From: an uncultured Clostridia bacterium
GTDB taxonomy: Bacteria > Bacillota > Clostridia > TANB77 > CAG-508
Assembly: GCA_948676835.1 (NCBI GenBank)
Contig: CAPOZU010000001.1
Span: forward strand, 58,633-122,632
Reading direction: 5' to 3'
Length of the DNA stretch: 64,000 nucleotides
Shown: positions 1-31,022 of the stretch, in pieces
How the letters are laid out: every line of letters starts with the position of its first letter
Position numbering within the stretch: the stretch's first letter is position 1
Program-made: the position numbers and the translations under genes
The notes under the pieces: model-generated
Seen by the model: the letters and a program-made list of their open reading frames with translations, nothing else
What the model was told of the DNA's origin: nothing
Database searches by the model: none

Positions 1-848
1 TATTTTTTGTATTTCCTAAAACTTCTATTTTACACTCATTTAATATTTTAATGATATTCGCTATTTTATTTATATGATTTATTGCATCTTTATTATCTGC
101 ATATTTATATACCTTGTCTTTTCTAATAATAGTTTTAATTCTATTCTCTTTTTTTCTTGTAATACTAAAACTTACAAATCTAATATCTTCAAAATTTTCA
201 TTTTTTGATACTTCTATAAAAAATGAATTTGCAAAAAAAGGAAACATTTTTTTATCTGCACTTACTAATTGCTTATAAGCATCTCTTTCTGAAAAATTCA
301 AAAATTCTTCTTCACCACAAAATGTTAATACTCGTGCATCTATATTATCATTATTAGGTAAAAAATCATCTGTATATATTACATTAGTTATTTCATAATC
401 TGGTAATGGATAATAGAATTTATATTTTAGATTTAAATTTTCTAGTATTTTCTTTATTTGTGATAAACTCAAAATATTATCATTAGACTTAACAATACTA
501 TCAAAAGCTTCTGCATCTAAATTTATTCTATCTCCTGCGAAATATTTCATTGCAAATTTATTCTTCATAGCTAAAAGAATTTTTCCATTTTCATTTAATT
601 TATTCGTAGCACATTCTAATAAATCTTTTATTTCATCTAGACTTAATTTTTCAAAAGTTCCAATTAATGTAATATAATCAAATTTATCTGTTATTTCTTT
701 AAGGTTTTCTGTAACCTTAACTTTACTTGTTTTTAATTTTAATTCTTGCAGAATATAACTATTTTCTCCTACTTGCAAAACAGTATCTTCTTCTTTAATT
801 GGATACCATGATATAATATTTTTTTTAAATTCAAGTAATTCTTCCATA
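1..848 (-). CDS. SAM-dependent methyltransferase-like protein; C-terminus cut by window start, N-terminus at 848
   Basis: Minus-strand open frame runs to position 1 with its ATG at 846-848 (MEELLEFKKNIISWYPIKEED...VLQVGENSYIL...). The glycine-containing motif resembles class I methyltransferases, and the gene sits at the edge of the Wzm/Wzt export locus. Confidence 0.45.
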
Positions 849-865
849 CTTATTTCCTTTTTATT

Positions 866-2140
866 TTAAATTTTAGAAATTTTAATTTCTGAATCTAGTC
901 TAACTAAACCAACTGTATTTTTAGTTGTTATTATTTCAATTAAAAGCGCATCATATTTTCTACTTAATGCCTCTAAATCTCCTTGAAGATTATATTTAGT
1001 ACAACTAAATGAAACTGTATATTTTCCAGGAGCTATAGGAATTTTTTGAGTAAATTCTGCAATTGCAGTTTCTCCAGCTTCAAATTTTCCAGTAATAACT
1101 TTCTCTATATTAGTATTTGTTCCAGCAACATCTTTTCCTGCAAAATCTTTTATTGTTAAAGTAAAAATTGGATCTTTAACTTGAGTATAAAACTTCACTT
1201 TAGATTTAAAAGTTATTGTATCTTGATTATCAAAAACATTCACTAAATTTTCTTCACTATCAAAACTTCCATAATCTATAACTTCTGCTTCATTATTTCC
1301 ATATTCAATCATGTTTGGATTTTTGTTTAATTTATCCTTCCAAAATTCAGCACTATTATTTTCATTTTCTTTTTTTATAATTTTCTTTGTTTCATCTTCA
1401 TCTGGATTTATTCCAACAATTATTTTTTTATATCTATTTACTCCATCTTTAACAGATCCATCGAATGTTTTTCTACCATTTTCTAAGATAATTGCTCTAT
1501 TACAATTTGATAAAACATCTGCAACATTATGTGTAACAAATATAATTGTTTTTCCTTTTTCTTTAAATTGTTCAAATTTTTTAAAACATTTTAATTGAAA
1601 TGCCATATCTCCAACAGATAAAACTTCATCTACTATAAGAATATCTGGATCAACATTTATTGCACAGGCAAAAGCTAAACGAGCAAACATACCTGATGAA
1701 TATGTTTTTACTGGTTGTGACAAATGCTCGCCAATGTCTGCAAATTCAATAATTTCTTTTTCTTTTTGTTTTATTTCTTCATCTGAAAGCCCCATAACTT
1801 GTCCATGTTGATATATATTTTCATATCCTGTAAGTTCTGGGTTGAAAGCAGCTCCAAGTTCTAAAAGCGAACTTATTTTTCCATTAACTTCTATTGTTCC
1901 AGAGCTCTGAGTTGCTACACCAGTAATCATTTTTAAAAGAGTAGATTTTCCTGCTCCATTTTTCCCAAGTATACCAAGAACTTCTCCCTTTTTTAATTCC
2001 AAATTTAAATTATCTAAAGCTCTAAAAGTATCATGTTTTTCATATCCTGGAATAATTGTTTCAAACAATCTATCTTTCTTGCTTTTAAACATTTTATATT
2101 CTTTTACTAAATTGGTAATTTTTATTACAGTATCACTCAT
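866..2140 (-). CDS. wzt: Polysaccharide/O-antigen ABC exporter ATP-binding protein (Wzt/TagH type) with an extended C-terminal domain
   Basis: Walker A GKNGAGKST and the ABC signature LSSGM are present. The 424-aa length implies an extra C-terminal domain of about 170 aa, as in Wzt carbohydrate-binding modules. Confidence 0.85.
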   Translation of the reverse strand: MSDTVIKITNLVKEYKMFKSKKDRLFETIIPGYEKHDTFRALDNLNLELKKGEVLGILGKNGAGKSTLLKMITGVATQSSGTIEVNGKISSLLELGAAFNPELTGYENIYQHGQVMGLSDEEIKQKEKEIIEFADIGEHLSQPVKTYSSGMFARLAFACAINVDPDILIVDEVLSVGDMAFQLKCFKKFEQFKEKGKTIIFVTHNVADVLSNCNRAIILENGRKTFDGSVKDGVNRYKKIIVGINPDEDETKKIIKKENENNSAEFWKDKLNKNPNMIEYGNNEAEVIDYGSFDSEENLVNVFDNQDTITFKSKVKFYTQVKDPIFTLTIKDFAGKDVAGTNTNIEKVITGKFEAGETAIAEFTQKIPIAPGKYTVSFSCTKYNLQGDLEALSRKYDALLIEIITTKNTVGLVRLDSEIKISKI

Positions 2141-2162
2141 ATAATAGATATCCTTTCGAAAT

Positions 2163-3125
2163 TTACTTTCTAAATTTTAATAGAAATCTTACTAAAAATG
2201 GAACATTAAGTATTAAAAAATTTTCTAAATTATAAACAAATCCTTCATACTTATACAATTTGAAAAATAAGTTCCATTTTCTGAAATTGATATTTTTCTT
2301 TTTCTCTAGCATTTTATAGTATTCTAATGCTTCTTTATTTAATTTTTTGATTTTTTCATCTATAAATTTATCTTCATTTTCAATAAAAACTGTAAAGTGT
2401 TCTATTTTTACACTAATAAATAAACTTCTAATTTCTTCAAAACTTTTTAATTCATCTGTTTTTTTCTTAGATCCTACTTTATTATTTTTATGTTGTCTGT
2501 ATTTTATTAAAGGTTCTTCTATATATGTTATTTTATATTTCTGACTTAATATTAATGGAATCCAATAATCATGTAATACAAATTTACTTGTATTTGGAAG
2601 TGGAAGAACTTCACTTATAAGTTCTCCTTTGGAAAGAATCGTACACCCTGTAACAAAATTATTTAAATATAAACTCTCGAAATTATTATATTTTTTTATT
2701 TTATTATAAATCCCTTTAAGTTTCCAATATGATTCATAAGTTACATTTAAATTTTCATCCACAACTTCTAAATCTGTATATACTAAATCACTATTTGTTT
2801 CTTCAAGAGTTTGTATTGATTTTTCTATTTTATTTTCTTTCCAAATATCATCTTGGTCTGAAAACATATAATATTTACTCTCTACTTTTTTTAATAAGAA
2901 TTCAAAGTTTTTTACAACTCCTAAGTTTTTTTCTTGATTAAATACTATAATTCTTTTATCTTTTTCTACATATTCAGCTAAAATTTCTCTTGTACTATCT
3001 ACTGATAAATCATCTGAAATTAGTAATCTAAAATTAGAATAACTCTGTGATAAAATACTATCTAATTGTTCTCTTAAATATTGCTGTCCATTATATGTTG
3101 CAAGTAATATATCTATTTTTTCCAT
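2163..3125 (-). CDS. Family 2 glycosyltransferase
   Basis: N-terminus ILLATYNGQQYLREQLDSILSQSY...LLISDDLSVDSTREIL and the DQDD motif are typical of GT2 (GT-A fold) enzymes. Confidence 0.8.
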   Translation of the reverse strand: MEKIDILLATYNGQQYLREQLDSILSQSYSNFRLLISDDLSVDSTREILAEYVEKDKRIIVFNQEKNLGVVKNFEFLLKKVESKYYMFSDQDDIWKENKIEKSIQTLEETNSDLVYTDLEVVDENLNVTYESYWKLKGIYNKIKKYNNFESLYLNNFVTGCTILSKGELISEVLPLPNTSKFVLHDYWIPLILSQKYKITYIEEPLIKYRQHKNNKVGSKKKTDELKSFEEIRSLFISVKIEHFTVFIENEDKFIDEKIKKLNKEALEYYKMLEKKKNINFRKWNLFFKLYKYEGFVYNLENFLILNVPFLVRFLLKFRK

Positions 3126-3142
3126 TTGTTAAACCTTCCATT

Positions 3143-3964
3143 TTATAATACATCTGCAAAATCTTTTTTAGATTTTTTAAATATAACATTTCCCCAACAA
3201 AATAAAAGTACTGTTATAACCCAAAAAATTATTGTAAATAATCCATTATTATCTGTTATAATAGTTGAATTTTCCATAAATGCTTGTCTAAATCCTTCTA
3301 CTAAATAAGTAAATGGAAATGCTTTAAAAACATATATTAATTTTCCACCCATTTTGTCTGCTATCATATCTAAATTCCAAATTATAGGTGTAAACCACAT
3401 ACATAATTGAATAACTATGTTTAATAATTGTGCAAAATCTGGTACTAATGTTGTTATGCTTGATGTAAACCTTGTTAGTGCAATTATAAAACATATTAAG
3501 CAAAATAATATATAAATTACATTTAAAATATTTGGTATATATCCAAAAAGCGATGATATGACAATTGCAATTGCCATTAAAAATATTCCTACAAAACATG
3601 ACGATGTTAATGAAATAACTGGAATAATATCTATTGGAAATACTACTTTTTTTACTAAGTAACTATAATTTCTTATTGAATTACTTGCAGTTAATATTGC
3701 ATCACTACAAAAAAGCCATATAGACATTCCTGGTAAAAACCAGACTACATAAGGATAATTTCCATTACTTCCTGTATGCAAAATATATTGAAATACTATT
3801 ACATAAGTAAGCATAAATACAAATGGCTGTGCAAATCCCCATATGGCACCTAGACCAGTGCCTGCAAATCTATTTCTAAAATCATTTTTTCCTAATTTAA
3901 TTACTAGTTTTCTATTATTAAAAAGTGTTTTAAAAAAATCCATATTTACTTCCTTTTCCACCAC
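3143..3964 (-). CDS. wzm: ABC-2 type polysaccharide exporter permease (Wzm/TagG type)
   Basis: 273-aa protein with six predicted transmembrane helices, adjacent to the wzt ATPase, with ABC-2 family architecture. Confidence 0.8.
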   Translation of the reverse strand: MVEKEVNMDFFKTLFNNRKLVIKLGKNDFRNRFAGTGLGAIWGFAQPFVFMLTYVIVFQYILHTGSNGNYPYVVWFLPGMSIWLFCSDAILTASNSIRNYSYLVKKVVFPIDIIPVISLTSSCFVGIFLMAIAIVISSLFGYIPNILNVIYILFCLICFIIALTRFTSSITTLVPDFAQLLNIVIQLCMWFTPIIWNLDMIADKMGGKLIYVFKAFPFTYLVEGFRQAFMENSTIITDNNGLFTIIFWVITVLLFCWGNVIFKKSKKDFADVL

Positions 3965-4053
3965 TAAAAATTCGAAGTTATTATATCATTAAGCACTTTG
4001 AATATCAACACTTTAATGTGTTTTCTTTGTAACTTCTTTGCATTTTTTAATAA

Positions 4054-4082
4054 TTGATTTTTTTATAAAAAAGTTGTATAAT
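4054..4082 (+). promoter_or_regulatory. Sigma-70-type promoter TTGATT-17nt-TATAAT driving GC-rich cassette 1
   Basis: TTGATT at 4054-4059, a 17-nt spacer, TATAAT at 4077-4082, about 55 nt upstream of the ribosome-binding site AAAGGAGA at 4137-4144. Confidence 0.45.
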
Positions 4083-4150
4083 ATTCTTATGTAAACACAT
4101 TTTTCGATAGCAATTTATTCTAAGGGGTATATCCCAAAAGGAGAATGATT

Positions 4151-4435
4151 ATGGCAAGACGGAACGACAAGAAACTCGCAGATCTCATGAACGCAAGAAC
4201 TTTCGTCCAACACGTAGTCGATCAACTGGAAAGATACGGCAAAACCAAACAGCAGAATTCCGCTATGGAAAGCTGTATCCAAATGCTGCCTGCGCTAAGC
4301 ACCCAACCCGCCCTAAGGAGAAGATATCTGGACATGCTCAACCGTGTCATCAAAGATAAATATTCTCCCAACATCGTACTCACTTACTTTAAGCGCGAAG
4401 ACAGTAATCTGCGTGCAAAAATCGCAGAGTTTTAA
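4151..4435 (+). CDS. Hypothetical 95-aa protein, compositionally foreign (about 46% GC); the track ATG at 4145 is an alternative start
   Basis: ATG at 4151 follows the ribosome-binding site AAAGGAGA with a 6-nt gap. Codon usage and GC are very different from the flanking wzm and galE. Protein MARRNDKKLADLMNARTFVQHVVDQLERYGK... has no recognisable family. Confidence 0.5.
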   Translation: MARRNDKKLADLMNARTFVQHVVDQLERYGKTKQQNSAMESCIQMLPALSTQPALRRRYLDMLNRVIKDKYSPNIVLTYFKREDSNLRAKIAEF

Positions 4436-4449
4436 TCAAAACACAATAC

Positions 4450-4485
4450 AAAACGAGGTGTGCCAATCCTGGCATACCTCGTTTT
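4450..4485. terminator. Bidirectional rho-independent terminator (16-bp GC-rich stem, ATCC loop) shared by cassette 1 and convergent galE
   Basis: AAAACGAGGTGTGCCA-atcc-TGGCATACCTCGTTTT with an A-run on one side and a T-run on the other. Confidence 0.7.
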
Positions 4486-4494
4486 GCTATCTTT

Positions 4495-5496
4495 TTATTT
4501 TTCTAAACTTTTTTCATAATTCCAAGAATCCCTACAAATATCTTCTATAGTTTTTTCTGTTTTCCATTTTAATTCTTTTAGTGCTTTTGTGCTATCAGCA
4601 AAATATTCTGGCAAATCTCCTGGTCTTCTATCAACAATTTTATAATTCACTTTTATATTATTTACTTTTTCAAATGTTGTTACAAGTTCTAATACACTAA
4701 CACCTTTTCCTGAACCCAAATTATAAACATTCAGTCCGTCTGGAGCATTTTGCAAAGCTTTTACATGTCCTTTCGCCAAATCTACAACATGTATGTAATC
4801 TCTTACTCCTGTTCCATCTACTGTTGGGTAATCATTTCCAAAAATATTTAAAGTATCTAATTTTCCACTAGCAACTTTCATTACATATGGCATTAAATTA
4901 TTTGGAATCCCATTTGGTTCTTCTCCAATTAATCCTGATTCATGTGCACCAACTGGATTGAAATATCTTAATAAAGTTATATTCCATGAATTATCTGAAA
5001 AGTACAAATCTTCTAATATTTTTTCAATCATAGCTTTTGTTGTTCCATATGGGCTTGTAGTTTTTCCTCTTCCCATAGTTTCAATATATTTTATTTCTCC
5101 ATTATCTCCATATACTGTTGCAGAAGATGAAAAAATAAATTTTCTAACATTATATTTTTGCATAACTTCTAAAAGATTTGTTGTTGATATTAAATTGTTT
5201 GAATAATACATTAATGGCTTTTTTACAGATTCTCCTACTGCCTTATATCCAGCAAAATGAATTACTGCCTCTATATTTTTTTCAATTTCAAATATTTCAT
5301 CAACCTTTGATTTATCAGTTAAATCATATTTATATAATTTAATCTTCTTTCCTGTTATTTTCTCAAGTTTTTCTAAAACCTCTTCCTTACTATTATAAAG
5401 ATTGTCTACAATTATTACATCAAAATTAGAATTTACAAGTTCAACTACTGTATGTGAACCTATAAAGCCTAATCCTCCTGTTACTAATATTTTCAT
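4495..5496 (-). CDS. galE: UDP-glucose 4-epimerase
   Basis: MKILVTGGLGFIGSHTVVEL... Rossmann GxxGxxG motif, a YxxxK catalytic dyad, and a 333-aa length typical of GalE. Confidence 0.85.
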   Translation of the reverse strand: MKILVTGGLGFIGSHTVVELVNSNFDVIIVDNLYNSKEEVLEKLEKITGKKIKLYKYDLTDKSKVDEIFEIEKNIEAVIHFAGYKAVGESVKKPLMYYSNNLISTTNLLEVMQKYNVRKFIFSSSATVYGDNGEIKYIETMGRGKTTSPYGTTKAMIEKILEDLYFSDNSWNITLLRYFNPVGAHESGLIGEEPNGIPNNLMPYVMKVASGKLDTLNIFGNDYPTVDGTGVRDYIHVVDLAKGHVKALQNAPDGLNVYNLGSGKGVSVLELVTTFEKVNNIKVNYKIVDRRPGDLPEYFADSTKALKELKWKTEKTIEDICRDSWNYEKSLEK

Positions 5497-5498
5497 TT

Positions 5499-6254
5499 TT
5501 ATTCCCCTTTCATTACTCTATAAATAATAAAGTTTGCAGTTTCAGCAATTCTTTCAAATCCGAAATAATGTAATTCTACATTTATTACTAGGCCTCTATC
5601 TAATACTATGTAGTTACAGTCATTATCAAATGCCATTTGCACTATATCTTCTGAAATTCCAGAATGCATTATTCTTACATATTCATTATCCTGATATCCT
5701 GTAGGTTCTCTTCTATATGCAAGTTTTATACTTGGTTCAACTTGTCTTATATATGGAACTAGCTGTTCAGATGTAAGTGCTTTTTTATTTTCTTCATCAC
5801 CTTGCCTTATTATTTCTACAACTTCCAAAACTTCATCTGGTACTTTATATAAATTATTAACTTTTTTATAATTATCCTTATTATAAATAAGTTTTCCACT
5901 TATAATTATAACTACAATTACTGCTAATGTTGAAATTACCTGTTTCGTTTTTCCATTTATACTATTTATAAATTTTACTCCTGCATATGCAATTACAATC
6001 CCAAGTGGTAACATCCAATATACTCTCCAATATACTGCATCTGTAAGTATACTTCCTACTAACTTATTAAAAATTGGATTTAAAGTTATTAATAGAATTA
6101 TAATAGAAAAATAAATTAAAAAGGCTTTTATCTTTTTATCCTTTTCTTTTATAAAAATATATATCATTGATATAAAAAATAATACAATATACATTCCAGA
6201 ACCTTGAAATTCTAGAAATGTTTGTTTTATTATTTTTATATTTTCTTCAAACAT
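5499..6254 (-). CDS. Hypothetical membrane protein (N-terminal transmembrane helices plus soluble C-terminal domain)
   Basis: 251-aa open frame with a good coding signal, three or four hydrophobic helices, and no recognisable motif. Confidence 0.45.
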   Translation of the reverse strand: MFEENIKIIKQTFLEFQGSGMYIVLFFISMIYIFIKEKDKKIKAFLIYFSIIILLITLNPIFNKLVGSILTDAVYWRVYWMLPLGIVIAYAGVKFINSINGKTKQVISTLAVIVVIIISGKLIYNKDNYKKVNNLYKVPDEVLEVVEIIRQGDEENKKALTSEQLVPYIRQVEPSIKLAYRREPTGYQDNEYVRIMHSGISEDIVQMAFDNDCNYIVLDRGLVINVELHYFGFERIAETANFIIYRVMKGE

Positions 6255-6277
6255 TATTTCCTCCTATTTTCTTACAA

Positions 6278-7390
6278 TCACTTGCACAAAAGATTATATA
6301 AATAACTTCCAGTTTCTAAAAAATATGGTGCAAAATGAAAAATTCCACAAATAATAGATGGCACGCAGCTTATTAAACATACAACCATACTTTTTATTGC
6401 TTTACCAACTTTAAATTGTTTAGATAAAATTTTATATATTTCATACGAAAACCATAAAACCATTATTATAATTGGTGGAAGTGCAGCCCCTAATGTCGTT
6501 GTGAATGTTCCCGCAAAGTTTAAAATAAGTAATAATAAAAAGTCTACAAATTTAAATCCGTTATCTTCTGCTTTCATCATAATTAACCAGGTAGCTGGTA
6601 TTATTATATTTGCAAGTACAGATTTTCCTTGCCATATACGGAAAAATAAAAATGCAAAATTAGTTCTTCCAGAATAGCCTCCCCATATAAATACAATATT
6701 TATTATTAGTAAAAATAGTATACTTGATTTTATATCTTTTTTAAACAATTCATTTGCTATTAATAAATATATAGAATAAACGATTGGAACAAATATAAAA
6801 GGTAAAATCGTATGCGATACAATTGCAGGTTGTATATTTATTAATTTTGATACTATTGCAGAATATATTGGAAATGGTCCTAATCTGTATCTTAAAAGAA
6901 ATTGCTCTCCATCATCTAATCCAGTAGTTCCTGAATATTTAAATAAAGAATCAGTTTCAAGTGTAGTAGTTGCGGTTCCGACATAAAAAGAATCATCTTC
7001 ATCTATATGTGTATAAACCAAAAATCCATATAATTGAATTCCTACTACAATTATTACTAATATTGTTAATAGTTTAGGCAATTCTTTTATAGTTTGTATT
7101 GCATATTGAAAAATTTCTTTTATTCTTATAGTATTAACAAGTAAAGATATTGCAGCAAGTACTAGCATTATTATAGAATATGTTTTTAATAATATTGTAA
7201 AAGATACTTCATAAAGAATCATTGGGACTGTAAGAATTTGCGCAATTGCAAATTCTACTAGATATCCAATTACAAATGCATAAATAAGATTATTTTTATC
7301 ATTTTTATTAAATCTTACAACTAATAATCCTACTAACTCTGGAATAATAAATAAAACTAGTAGTGACATTAACATTTTTAAAATAATCAT
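6278..7390 (-). CDS. Polytopic membrane protein, possible EpsG/Wzy-like polysaccharide polymerase
   Basis: 370 aa with about ten transmembrane helices in a polysaccharide locus. Assignment is by context only. Confidence 0.4.
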   Translation of the reverse strand: MIILKMLMSLLVLFIIPELVGLLVVRFNKNDKNNLIYAFVIGYLVEFAIAQILTVPMILYEVSFTILLKTYSIIMLVLAAISLLVNTIRIKEIFQYAIQTIKELPKLLTILVIIVVGIQLYGFLVYTHIDEDDSFYVGTATTTLETDSLFKYSGTTGLDDGEQFLLRYRLGPFPIYSAIVSKLINIQPAIVSHTILPFIFVPIVYSIYLLIANELFKKDIKSSILFLLIINIVFIWGGYSGRTNFAFLFFRIWQGKSVLANIIIPATWLIMMKAEDNGFKFVDFLLLLILNFAGTFTTTLGAALPPIIIMVLWFSYEIYKILSKQFKVGKAIKSMVVCLISCVPSIICGIFHFAPYFLETGSYLYNLLCK

Positions 7391-8709
7391 TCTTCTTTTT
7401 CATTTTCTCCTTTAATTTCTTCTGTATTATCCTGCTTTTTAGCTTCTATTATTTTTATACTATTTGCATGTAACAATGGTATAGTTAAAAAGAATATTAA
7501 ACAAATAGTATCTGAACTTCCTATTGAAAATCTTCCAAAACTTTCAAACATAATATATATTCCATAAGTAATATACATTACCAAATATAATCTTTTGAAT
7601 TTTTTATCCAAATCTGATTTTAATACTTTTTTTATAATAGTAAAATAGATAAATCCGAAATATAAGAATCCTACTAATCCTGCTGTTAATAATAAATCAA
7701 TATAAATATTATGAAATTGAGTAAATACTTTTCCATCAATATTTAATAATTTAGTGGATTGAAATCTTCCAACACCAAATATAAAATTTATTGGTGATGA
7801 AAATAATAAATCTGTACCTACTTTCCAAATTTCGGTTCTACCAGATAAATCTTTAATTCGTTCAATCCTTAAGAAATATTTATCAATAGTATTCCATAGT
7901 TTTGGAATATACATTTTAATTGCAATAAACGCTATTATTGCCAAAATGCATAAACTTACTATTGTAATTATTTTTGTTTTTTTACTAATTTTATCTGTAA
8001 ACAAAAACATTAATCCAAATAAAATTATAATAGCCATTATACCTGTTCTAGACATTGTTAATAATAAATTAAGTAAAAATATAGGTAATGTTATTTTATA
8101 TATTAATTTGTTTGATTTTTGCATAACAAAAAAGTCTGAAATAATTCCTAAATATAAGAAAAAGGCAAATTGATTTCTATTGGCAAAAAAGCTTTTTATA
8201 TTAACCCATTCTTTAGATTTTATAAATCCCATTGTAATTAAAATTTCTTTAAAATATAAAATAACATTTACTAAACAAGCTGCTAAGCTCATATATATTA
8301 TGCATTTAAAAAAACTATAGATATATTCTTCTTTAATTTTTACATTTAGTAGTAACACTATTAGTAATAAAATATTAATGAAAATACAACCAATATTTAT
8401 TATATCCATAAATGAAACTTGCCCTGTTGTAAAAAAGTTTATTGCTTGGAATGCTAATAAAACAAATGTAATAATTGATAATAAAATTAAATTGAATTTT
8501 GTTTCTTTTTCTATTTTTACTTTTTTAAATAGATATCCTACTAACATTAATATTTCTATAATAAAACAAATCATCATCGGAATAGTTCCTACTCCAAAAG
8601 ATTCTTTACTAACCATATTAGGTAAAATTAATGGTATATAATTTATTAAAATAATCATAAATAAAATTATTGGCAAATTTAATTTTTCTCTAATTTTCTT
8701 TAAAAACAT
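7387..8709 (-). CDS. O-antigen ligase/Wzy-like polymerase family membrane protein (paralog A)
   Basis: 440 aa and multi-transmembrane. The C-terminal block GRFSIGSSDTICLIFFLTIPLLHANS and an internal NRNQFAFFLYLG motif are shared with the next gene. Confidence 0.55.
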   Translation of the reverse strand: MFLKKIREKLNLPIILFMIILINYIPLILPNMVSKESFGVGTIPMMICFIIEILMLVGYLFKKVKIEKETKFNLILLSIITFVLLAFQAINFFTTGQVSFMDIINIGCIFINILLLIVLLLNVKIKEEYIYSFFKCIIYMSLAACLVNVILYFKEILITMGFIKSKEWVNIKSFFANRNQFAFFLYLGIISDFFVMQKSNKLIYKITLPIFLLNLLLTMSRTGIMAIIILFGLMFLFTDKISKKTKIITIVSLCILAIIAFIAIKMYIPKLWNTIDKYFLRIERIKDLSGRTEIWKVGTDLLFSSPINFIFGVGRFQSTKLLNIDGKVFTQFHNIYIDLLLTAGLVGFLYFGFIYFTIIKKVLKSDLDKKFKRLYLVMYITYGIYIMFESFGRFSIGSSDTICLIFFLTIPLLHANSIKIIEAKKQDNTEEIKGENEKEE

Positions 8710-10108
8710 TTTCTTTTTTTCCTTCTATATCTTCTATATTTTCATTCTCTAAATATGTGGAATTTTGTATTTCACATTTATCAATTTTTGCAATACTATT
8801 AGAATGTAATAAAGGTATTGTTATAAAAAAGATTATTCCTAAACAGTCTGAACCACCTATTGAAAATCTTCCTAAACTTTCTGAAATCATATATATAAAA
8901 TAAGTTATGTATAATATCACATATATTATTTTATATCTTTTATCCATTTTTTTAGATATTATTACCTTTACAAAAACAAATAAATATATTGATATAAAAT
9001 ACACAAGTTCAATTATACCACCAGAAACTAAAAATTCTATGTAAGTATTATGAAATTGAGTAAATGGTAATTTAGCATTATTTATAGCCTCTACACCCTT
9101 AAATCTTCCTGCGCCAAAAATAAGCGTTTGTTTGCTTTCTTTTGCAACAGATAATGCAACATCCCATATGTTCGTTCTTCCAGTTAATGTATCAATACTT
9201 TTTACTCTTATAAGCTTATCCATTAGTAGTTCTGGATTATACTCATATAAATAGGAAATTCCTTTGTATCCTACTATTCCTAAAATGATAATTAAAGCAA
9301 TTTTAGGTAAAATTTTTATTCTATCAGTAAATATTAAATATAATCCTAAAAATAATGCAGTAACTACTAGTCCTGTTCTTGATTGTGTAAATACCATATT
9401 AAATAAAAATAGTAATATACAAGCTATATAAAATACTACACGTAACACGCGATATACTTTTGATTTTATTGTTGGGGTTTTAGCAATTAAAATAACTGCA
9501 GAAACTACACAAGTAAATAATACATACGCAAACTGATTTTTTTGAGCAAAAAAGCTTTTTGATTCTATTATTTTTGTATCTATTGTTATTATTTTTAAAG
9601 AAGCTAAAATATCTTCTTTATAAATAATATAGTTATATACACAAGATACAATTCCAAATACAATCATAAGTCTCATAAAATTATATATATACTTTTCGTC
9701 CAATTCCATATTCATTAATACTACAAATAAAAATAATACATTAACAAATTTACAAGCTATATTAAATATATCATATAAATAATATGTTCCTGTTTTTACA
9801 TTTAAATATTGAACTATTGTCCACATTATAGTAACACTAAGTAATATTACAAATTGTATAATCATTGCTTTAGAAATTTTTATCTTTTTTATATAAAAGA
9901 TACATAATATTATAAATCCAATTCCAAATGCTGGTACTAATGTATCTGTCCCTGCAGCAAAGGATTCTTTGGTATTATAATTTAATTTTATCAATGTAAA
10001 ATAATTTAAAAATATCATAATAAATAGAATAATTGGTAATAGATTTTTACTCCAAATTCTTTGTATAATATTTTCTTCTTTTCTTCTTTTTAATTTTCTG
10101 CTATCCAT
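8690..10108 (-). CDS. O-antigen ligase/Wzy-like polymerase family membrane protein (paralog B)
   Basis: 472 aa. Clear paralog of 7387-8709 (GRFSIGGSDCLGIIFFITIPLLHSNS; KNQFAYVLFTCV). Confidence 0.55.
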   Translation of the reverse strand: MDSRKLKRRKEENIIQRIWSKNLLPIILFIMIFLNYFTLIKLNYNTKESFAAGTDTLVPAFGIGFIILCIFYIKKIKISKAMIIQFVILLSVTIMWTIVQYLNVKTGTYYLYDIFNIACKFVNVLFLFVVLMNMELDEKYIYNFMRLMIVFGIVSCVYNYIIYKEDILASLKIITIDTKIIESKSFFAQKNQFAYVLFTCVVSAVILIAKTPTIKSKVYRVLRVVFYIACILLFLFNMVFTQSRTGLVVTALFLGLYLIFTDRIKILPKIALIIILGIVGYKGISYLYEYNPELLMDKLIRVKSIDTLTGRTNIWDVALSVAKESKQTLIFGAGRFKGVEAINNAKLPFTQFHNTYIEFLVSGGIIELVYFISIYLFVFVKVIISKKMDKRYKIIYVILYITYFIYMISESLGRFSIGGSDCLGIIFFITIPLLHSNSIAKIDKCEIQNSTYLENENIEDIEGKKENVFKEN

Positions 10109-10116
10109 TTTTCCTC

Positions 10117-30930: not shown

Positions 30931-30970
30931 CGATTGTAGATTTATATTTTATATAATTTAAAATTGGAAA

Positions 30971-31000
30971 GCGCCCCGTTATCATTTGATAACGGGGCGC
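30971..31000. terminator. GC-rich hairpin terminator downstream of the BI-1-like gene
   Basis: GCGCCCCGTTATC-atttg-GATAACGGGGCGC with flanking T tracts on both strands. Confidence 0.7.
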
Positions 31001-31022
31001 AGAGCCTTTTTCCATTTGAAAC

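Follow-up and report, generated by a model that had tools for sequence, protein, structure and literature searches.

A stretch of 64,000 nucleotides from an uncultured Clostridia bacterium (contig CAPOZU010000001.1 of assembly GCA_948676835.1; the window) carries a small gene at positions 4151-4435, between wzm, the first gene of a glycopolymer export operon, and galE. All coordinates below refer to this 64-kb window. The gene encodes a basic protein of 94 amino acids, is transcribed as a unit of its own and is accessory, being absent from many relatives. In a subclade of very AT-rich (~24% GC) uncultured Clostridia the cassette is inserted, reversed, with the galE operon terminator on one side and the wzm-glycosyltransferase-wzt promoter on the other, and in another group it adjoins an operon led by an acyltransferase. 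The small protein may regulate the adjacent surface-glycopolymer operon or its products. We are confident of the anatomical and evolutionary parts of this account and hold the locus-associated regulatory role, taken alone, only tentatively; the whole statement, an optional expression cassette that encodes a regulator, we consider plausible but somewhat short of probable.

A self-contained transcription unit and its protein

The small gene extends from its own promoter to its own terminator, with the following elements.

4054-4082, plus strand: promoter TTGATT-17-TATAAT (sequence match, conservation)
4089-4096, plus strand: octamer ATGTAAAC, 4-6 nucleotides past the -10 hexamer, exact or near-exact in 10 of 12 lineages
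4124-4135, plus strand: hairpin GGGG-TATA-TCCC in the 5' untranslated region, abutting the Shine-Dalgarno sequence (covariation in the 12-lineage alignment)
4138-4143, plus strand: Shine-Dalgarno sequence AAGGAG, 7 nucleotides before the ATG, GGAG being invariant in 12 of 12 lineages
4151-4435, plus strand: coding sequence of the 94-amino-acid basic protein, a predicted four-helix bundle (translation, dN/dS, AlphaFold2)
4449-4496, no strand assigned: terminator, a 17-bp hairpin and T tract between the convergent small gene and galE

The original prediction, made from the sequence alone, placed an open reading frame (ORF) with this peptide between wzm and galE, and the translation and the Pfam matches of the neighbours bear it out, except that the peptide counts 94 residues, not 95. 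An alternative in-frame ATG at 4145, 1 nucleotide past GGAG, would add 'MI'; we take ATG 4151 as the likely start because it lies 7 nucleotides after AAGGAG and because ATG 4145 is absent in most distant homologues. The promoter was found where it had been predicted. Its -10 hexamer TATAAT is kept in 12 of 12 lineages and a TTGATT-like -35 hexamer (TTGNNN) in nearly all. The number of promoter-like hexamers in the window is ordinary for AT-rich DNA (11, versus 8.1 +/- 2.6 in shuffles); such hexamers are common by chance, so that the case for the signals of the small gene rests on their conservation. The octamer ATGTAAAC has a single occurrence in the window at 0 mismatches and marks the probable transcription start region of the gene. 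If the octamer is the 5' end, the mRNA would open with a leaderless AUG directly before UAA, a start-stop.

The hairpin beside the Shine-Dalgarno sequence, of only 4 bp, is supported by covariation. All four pairs (4/4) have changed on both sides and 89.6% of the cells of the 12-lineage alignment are paired, compared with 4-52% in slid controls, and the score was matched by 0 of 500 shuffles. The terminator hairpin (4449-4486) has 17 pairs including one G-U, a 4-nucleotide loop and CTATCTTTTT after it, and ends 8 nucleotides from the galE stop (4495). In the galE direction the stem contains a single A.C mismatch and is followed by a U-rich tail, and the hairpin could plausibly work in both directions; the original prediction gave it a 16-bp stem and had it end galE as well. 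A hairpin stands at the terminator position in all 12 lineages, with diverged sequence. The window holds no paralogue of the small gene and no reuse of its promoter signature, both of which were searched for. The predicted self-contained expression cassette is confirmed by the conservation of promoter, Shine-Dalgarno sequence and terminator in 12 lineages: the small gene is a transcription unit made of a promoter, a leader with the Shine-Dalgarno-adjacent hairpin, one ORF and a terminator.

The small ORF is a real protein gene under strong purifying selection. The ratio of nonsynonymous to synonymous divergence (dN/dS, by the method NG86) is 0.044 between the window and L007 (dS 0.41) and 0.085 between the window and L004 (dS 0.73), and overall it lies at 0.04-0.11 against two close relatives (L001-L047 label the relatives' contigs or loci that were compared). 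A gene on the antisense strand of 4151-4435 was considered and rejected; that strand has 4-6 stops in six lineages and no conserved ORF. The codon-aligned antisense frame has 0-2 stops in the window, L007, L004, L021, L024 and L028, and is near-open because the sense codons TTA and TCA are avoided, as a by-product.

AlphaFold2 predicts an up-down four-helix bundle (predicted local distance difference test score, pLDDT, 89.5; predicted template modelling score, pTM, 0.81) with helices at residues 2-29, 35-49, 53-67 and 73-93, in agreement with the all-alpha fold originally proposed. The protein is also basic, as proposed, with an isoelectric point (pI) of 10.0 and 18 Lys and Arg against 10 Asp and Glu; the pI is 9.5-10.1 in 10 of 12 family members. 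The family alignment has six invariant residues, F18, L26, P47, P53, Y59 and L87, and the motifs RRNxKK (N-terminal), TQP, RRY and YFxRE.

A word-indexed search of 5.8 billion clusters yielded 2 clusters of the family, and an exhaustive HMMER scan of 1.84 billion representatives yielded 8 small-protein clusters, to which a profile search added 3. Searches of Pfam, NCBIfam, PHROGs and PADLOC with the protein and 9 family members returned only noise, in Pfam and NCBIfam even at E<=5, the best PADLOC match being at E 0.0075 for one member only. The PDB sequence-profile search gave only matches at E>0.6, and Foldseek found nothing at E<0.001 in PDB and BFVD, where the fold matches were generic helical bundles. 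Phage and plasmid sequences searched by tblastn, as well as viral contigs and Joint Genome Institute (JGI) metagenomes scanned with peptide patterns of close relatives, gave no match, and Rfam gave nothing relevant at gathering and permissive thresholds. The small protein is a previously undescribed family, new to Pfam and NCBIfam.

Database records of the exact 94-residue protein, and of a 96-residue version of it, come only from three contigs of <1 kb, whereas neighbouring proteins of the window are found on NCBI contigs of 265 kb and 382 kb. The small gene was apparently passed over in the genome assemblies by gene callers tuned to the AT-rich host, probably on account of its atypical codons, and the family is likely under-counted. 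More generally, atypical small genes in AT-rich hosts may be systematically under-annotated.

An old accessory cassette with discrete alleles and GC-rich codons

Homologues with 24-52% identity occupy the same slot in ~12 lineages. In the contexts L002-L029 the hosts have 23-30% GC, L001 being the exception, and the small gene is oriented against its neighbours. On one side it always diverges from an operon led by wzm, or by Acyl_transf_3 followed by a glycosyltransferase gene and wzm; on the other it converges with a gene that varies, namely galE or a gene for DUF6020, Amidase_3 or a SpaA/Flg_new surface protein. L018, the most divergent member, comes from a 31% GC host and is divergent from an unknown-protein operon with a glucoamylase-like gene. 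No mobile-element genes were found.

L007, a metagenome-assembled genome (MAG) named 'uncultured Clostridia bacterium', is one of the two closest relatives and is syntenic with window 1-14428 at 93.7% identity. Between L007 and the window, differences at 4-fold degenerate sites amount to 0.23 in the small gene and 0.19-0.21 in wzm and galE. The small gene is old in its lineage, not recent, since it sits at the same place in L007 (dS 0.41) and is present in L004 (dS 0.73), with a synonymous divergence that equals that of the flanks. The recent acquisition put forward in the original prediction is not supported, given the presence of the gene in the same slot at these distances and a third-position GC content (GC3) raised throughout the family.

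One lineage (L029/L027) has tandem diverged copies, P0008 followed by P0005, each with its own promoter, Shine-Dalgarno sequence, adjacent hairpin and terminator. A different arrangement is seen on contig L001 (832 nucleotides, coverage ~2x), where a copy 99.7% identical to window 4136-4529, comprising the Shine-Dalgarno sequence, the ORF, the terminator and the 3' end of galE, is preceded by the 3' end of an aldo/keto reductase gene of ~50% GC. The closest relative of that gene (84% nucleotide identity) was found on a contig of 44% GC, where the genes downstream are unrelated. Either L001 is a chimera, formed in assembly or in the library, or the cassette has moved to a different organism or strain background.

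The Wzm protein was used as a handle to fetch 24 further loci, among which some were left unjudged where wzm is internal to an operon with 3 kb of upstream sequence. Seven loci (L033, L035, L036, L037, L038, L043 and L045) have galE directly upstream of wzm, in the same direction and without the small gene. Their GalE proteins are 78-86% identical to that of the window, and the gap between galE and wzm, 91-382 nucleotides, holds only a terminator and the wzm promoter. A search of all ORFs in these loci with the family hidden Markov model (HMM), together with tblastn, revealed neither the gene nor a remnant. In the Wzm tree the window, L007, L021, L024 and L026 form a carrier clade with the rearranged non-carrier L031 nested inside it, and a distant pair of carriers, L008 and L015, makes up a second group. 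Measured against the common galE-wzm arrangement, the cassette is therefore an insertion, gained or transferred at least twice and lost in some cases. The small gene is thus accessory, with homologues at this locus in only some of the relatives and no known housekeeping role.

Comparison of carriers with one another showed that the history of the cassette does not follow that of its flanks. Between the window and L021, Wzm is 90% and GalE 89% identical at the amino acid level and the small protein only 51%; between L008 and L015, Wzm is 100% and the small protein 81% identical. Nonsynonymous divergence (dN) between the window and L021 is 0.40 in the small gene versus 0.04-0.06 in the flanks, and the proportion of synonymous differences (pS) in the small gene is 0.77, which is saturated, versus a dS of 0.42-0.56 in the flanks. 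At codons for identical amino acids, 4-fold sites differ at 0.74-0.81 in the small gene and at 0.23-0.35 in the flanks when the window is compared with L021 and L024. Sliding identity against L021 is 85-95% in wzm and galE, falls to 50-66% over the coding sequence and to 33% over the terminator, and changes abruptly at the galE stop. Saturated allele classes within flanks of 85-95% identity indicate that the cassette was replaced by recombination and did not evolve in place, and the pattern points to discrete allele classes that diverged anciently and are swapped through recombination in the conserved flanks. Constant local hypermutation, for instance by head-on transcription, was rejected, as the gene equals its flanks in synonymous divergence between the window and L007, both members of one allele class. 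Wzm, the family 2 glycosyltransferase (GT2), Wzt including its C-terminal domain and a 530-residue protein are 75-96% identical between allele classes. The cassette cleanly exemplifies an orphan gene that is exchanged in the form of discrete alleles, a pattern usually tied to specificity or conflict systems.

The foreign composition noted in the original prediction was confirmed. The coding sequence has a GC content of 0.45 (0.51, 0.34 and 0.52 at the first, second and third codon positions), whereas GC3 is 0.11-0.12 in wzm and galE and has a median of 0.11 over 54 host ORFs. The 62-nucleotide leader is only 31% GC, and the anomaly is therefore confined to the coding sequence. In every family member GC3 is 0.29-0.52, compared with 0.06-0.18 in the neighbours. 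Of the 94 codons of the window copy, 28 belong to types that make up <5% of host synonymous usage, versus a host median of 2.3% of codons, and such host-rare codons reach 13-31% across family members. Pooled over 11 members, the Leu codon TTA accounts for 12% in the family and 66% in the host, CTC plus CTG for 41% and 1%, CGG for 22% and 0%, and CAG for 55% and 8%, with NNC codons enriched throughout. In the window copy all ten Leu codons are CTN, eight of them CTC or CTG (0-1% in the host), and CGG and CGC are also used. High-expression codon bias was rejected as the cause: CTG, CTC, CGG, CCC, GCC and GTC are among the enriched codons, and the host makes essentially no use of them.

All members of the family share the GC-rich codon usage. 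Third-position changes polarised on the window and L007 branches comprise 7 GC>AT and 9 AT>GC, where host mutation pressure alone would give ~11% AT>GC (binomial P 1e-5, which is too strong a figure, since a single outgroup makes polarisation prone to error). A rough decay calculation, based on dS and the host GC3 of 0.11, indicates that a GC3 of ~0.5 today needs an ancestral GC3 of ~0.9. Raised GC3 throughout the family, together with the lack of AT-ward decay, means that GC content is no clock for a recent import. We conclude that something maintains the GC-rich codons, candidates being selection for slow or tRNA-dependent translation, selection on properties of the mRNA, and biased gene conversion from frequent recombination. 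GC-rich islands in AT-rich genomes are commonly taken for recent horizontal transfers, and here composition alone would mislead. Since the hosts are uncultured, the immediate impact of these findings is modest.

Neighbouring genes and the role of the small protein

The genes and signals that flank the cassette are listed below.

866-2140, strand as the wzm operon: Wzt, with ABC_tran and Wzt_C (Pfam)
2163-3125, strand as the wzm operon: GT2 glycosyltransferase (Pfam)
3143-3964, minus strand: wzm, ABC-2 type permease (Pfam PF01061, E 1e-13)
3980-4008, minus strand: wzm promoter TTGATA-17-TATAAT with TG upstream of the -10 hexamer, 11 of 12 matches
4009-4033, no strand assigned: conserved block CACTTTAATGTGTTTTCTTTGTAAC upstream of the wzm -35 hexamer (8-carrier alignment)
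4495-5496, minus strand: galE-like NAD-dependent epimerase (PF01370/PF16363)

The wzm gene is the first of the wzm-GT2-wzt glycopolymer export operon and is divergent from the small gene. Its start is probably ATG 3943, giving 266 amino acids, not the GTG 3964 of the mechanical ORF, as a Shine-Dalgarno sequence, GGAAAAGGAAG, lies upstream of that ATG and homologues measure 262-266 amino acids. The galE gene is the last of a Wzy_C-DUF6077-250aa-galE operon and is convergent with the small gene; the same operon order was found in L008-L014, and a literature search on DUF6077 found no papers. There are no tRNA genes within the window and no integrase among the neighbours. An invertible promoter or flanking repeats were also considered and rejected, the terminator being the only convincing inverted repeat.

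The wzm promoter is nearly invariant in 8 carrier lineages and occurs also in relatives without the small gene. The conserved block upstream of it reads ..CAaagaaaACACAttaaag on the wzm sense strand and is present as ttCACAaagaaNACACAttaaa in the non-carriers L031, L036, L037, L045 and L047. We consider it a putative operator of a regulator of the wzm operon, or a UP-like element; because it is kept in non-carriers, it is not an operator dedicated to the small protein. The block was seen at the same place in L031, L035-L038 and L043-L047, with or without the small gene, and ttCACAaagaaNACACAttaaa consists of two CACA-type half sites ~11 nucleotides apart.

Other observations concern the same region in relatives. 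L031, the non-carrier nested among carriers, has two copies of a ~45-nucleotide element (tatgactaactgaggNtgtaacaagcaaagctttaacaNcctc) with hairpin potential at 2683-3001, upstream of the wzm promoter, and the gene upstream of wzm encodes a PMT_2-like membrane protein in place of galE. L044 (1501-1785) and L046 (1494-1760) carry, both on the minus strand, small ORFs of 94 and 88 amino acids that are divergent from the operon containing wzm, with GC3 of 0.36-0.41 in hosts of 29-30% GC. These ORFs have a long, apparently structured leader, and a motif ggac...aatggcc(c)tcac is repeated downstream. They are analogues of the small gene in position only, hhalign showing no relation to its family.

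Two further genes of the window are compositional outliers. A second GC-rich cassette (30960-31790, minus strand; coding sequence 31023-31721) encodes a Bax1-I/YccA-like membrane protein (PF01027, 232 amino acids) with a GC content of 0.44, a GC3 of 0.50 and 28% host-rare codons. It has a TGATATAAT promoter, a leader hairpin GTGAGATATCTCAC, an AGGAGG Shine-Dalgarno sequence and a GC-rich terminator hairpin at ~30967-31001, and variants of the protein are found on the same long MAG contig as L007. The third outlier (34242-34997, minus strand) encodes a 251-residue protein without a Pfam match, with a GC content of 0.37, a GC3 of 0.31 and 10% host-rare codons; the exact protein is found on 186 contigs, including an NCBI contig of 265,563 nucleotides.

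The regulator-like nature suggested in the original prediction remains the most plausible reading, though one that we infer. We favour it because the only constant neighbour of the small gene is the promoter of a glycopolymer operon, always divergent from it, and because the protein is small and basic. Such a regulator could act by binding nucleic acid (DNA or RNA) or through protein-protein contact, and the rare codons would hold its translation down or make it dependent on the supply of tRNA.

Several points weigh against a regulatory role, or against the account as a whole. Neither a DNA- or RNA-binding motif nor a known domain was detected with Pfam, NCBIfam and PDB profiles, and the matches of the modelled fold are to generic helical bundles. 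The block upstream of the wzm promoter is found also in non-carriers. The proteins of the adjacent operon are 84-96% identical between allele classes, and a co-varying specificity partner in that operon was looked for and not found. Allelic divergence this extreme is unusual for a regulator of a conserved promoter. The polarisation of third-position changes rests on 16 changes and one outgroup, and the link of the L001 copy to a higher-GC gene, if real, would mean that the cassette can live outside the locus.

The chief rival is a conflict-type accessory gene, with a role for example in excluding phages, in immunity or in interference, which would be parked at a permissive hot spot of recombination in the surface-polysaccharide locus and have its ancient allele classes maintained by diversifying or frequency-dependent selection. 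It fits part of the evidence better than a regulator does, namely the patchy distribution, the discrete saturated allele classes in conserved flanks and the tandem diverged copies of L027/L029, each with promoter and terminator. The moron-like anatomy (PMC4378225) and the lack of a co-varying partner in the adjacent operon also speak for it. We nevertheless regard it as unlikely. The family has no similarity to PADLOC or PHROGs families, no copies in phages or plasmids and no relatives on viral contigs; it is a single small gene without an enzymatic domain, selection within an allele class is strongly purifying, and the strict tie to the promoter side of a glycopolymer operon would be left unexplained. 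The toxin or anti-defence function raised in the original prediction likewise found no support in PADLOC, PHROGs, phage or plasmid matches, and there is no partner gene.

The constant association with wzm/wzt or Acyl_transf_3 operons would suit a cytoplasmic protein that assists the glycopolymer machinery as an accessory subunit or chaperone, for instance by binding Wzt, a glycosyltransferase or the acyltransferase and so influencing export or chain length. This we consider rather improbable. A stoichiometric partner would not usually be transcribed separately and in the opposite direction, the gene is lacking in relatives whose Wzm is 72-88% identical, the allele classes are not mirrored in Wzm, GT2 or Wzt, and the modelled fold has only generic matches. 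A more elaborate form of the regulator reading is less probable still and is offered as speculation: rare codons kept by selection would be a translational throttle or a sensor of tRNA supply on four-helix regulators of a new class, which would exist in discrete specificity classes and tune glycopolymer export. This would be a mirror image of bldA, built as a moron-like swap cassette in a host of 24% GC.

A recent import from a higher-GC donor, be it a regulator, a toxin or an anti-defence gene, with a GC content that has not yet decayed, is very unlikely. Such an event would account for the GC3 of 0.52 against 0.11 in the host, for the promoter and terminator of its own, for the absence from many relatives and for L001, which joins a 99.7%-identical copy to an aldo/keto reductase gene with its nearest relative in a 44% GC contig. 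It conflicts with the same position and flank-like synonymous divergence in L007, the presence in L004 at dS 0.73, and the occurrence of all family members found among 15 billion proteins in hosts of 23-30% GC, L001 excepted. Third-position changes without AT-ward decay, the ancestral GC3 of ~0.9 that would be required and the lack of a defence, phage or plasmid match also oppose it. That the GC-rich segment is a structured non-coding or dual-function RNA with an incidental ORF is hardly credible: GC-rich islands in AT-rich genomes are often structured RNAs and the whole transcript folds with z = -4.9, yet this value is dominated by the terminator hairpin, the coding sequence against synonymous-codon shuffles gives z of -2.4 to +0.4 (7 lineages), there is no Rfam match and no conserved antisense ORF, and dN/dS is 0.04-0.11 with the frame kept at 24-52% identity.

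Comparison with known systems

Among known helical bundles, the NIT domain of NasR, FliS and the P1 or histidine phosphotransfer (HPt) domain of CheA are only 5-15% identical to the small protein. HPt and CheA-P1 domains, which carry on helix 2 a conserved, solvent-exposed His that accepts phosphate, differ from it further, as the family has no invariant His and H22 is not conserved. Unlike helix-turn-helix (HTH) and other known transcription-factor families, 9 members searched with profiles have no recognisable DNA-binding domain. The small gene differs from defence and toxin-antitoxin systems in being monocistronic, without a partner gene, and from integron cassettes in having its own promoter, with no integrase and no attC-like repeat, the only strong inverted repeat being the terminator.

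Divergently transcribed small regulators are a general arrangement at polysaccharide loci, and UpxY and UpxZ of Bacteroides are regulators embedded in such a locus. The small gene resembles these in its place at the promoter end of a glycan operon, its separate transcription and its locus-specific alleles. The protein has no sequence or fold relation to NusG-like or HTH regulators, and the operator-like block is retained in genomes without the small gene.

Control by a rare tRNA is exemplified by leuX and fimB in E. coli. The codon peculiarity of the small gene, a small and possibly regulatory gene beside a surface-structure locus that is rich in host-rare codons across lineages, recalls control of the bldA type. 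Rare codons control regulators in Streptomyces, through bldA and UUA codons (PMC2000904), and in Pseudomonas protegens, through AGA codons (PMC4836200). In the small gene the composition is reversed, with GC-rich codons in an AT-rich host, and the enrichment is diffuse over many codon families, not centred on one key codon. No cognate regulated tRNA is known for it, and the window contains no tRNA genes.

In its anatomy the cassette is closest to a phage moron. A moron is one ORF of atypical composition that brings its own promoter and terminator and sits between two genes which adjoin each other in related phages (PMC4378225). The cassette differs from them in sitting in a chromosomal cell-wall polysaccharide locus, with no phage genes nearby and no phage homologues, and its composition characterises the family stably and does not signal a recent import. 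The likeness lies in one ORF bracketed by its own promoter and terminator in 12 lineages, in a position between galE and wzm, which are adjacent in seven relatives, and in a composition unlike that of the neighbours (GC3 0.29-0.52 versus 0.06-0.18). As in morons, no recombinase or target repeats are evident, and in one lineage the copies are stacked.

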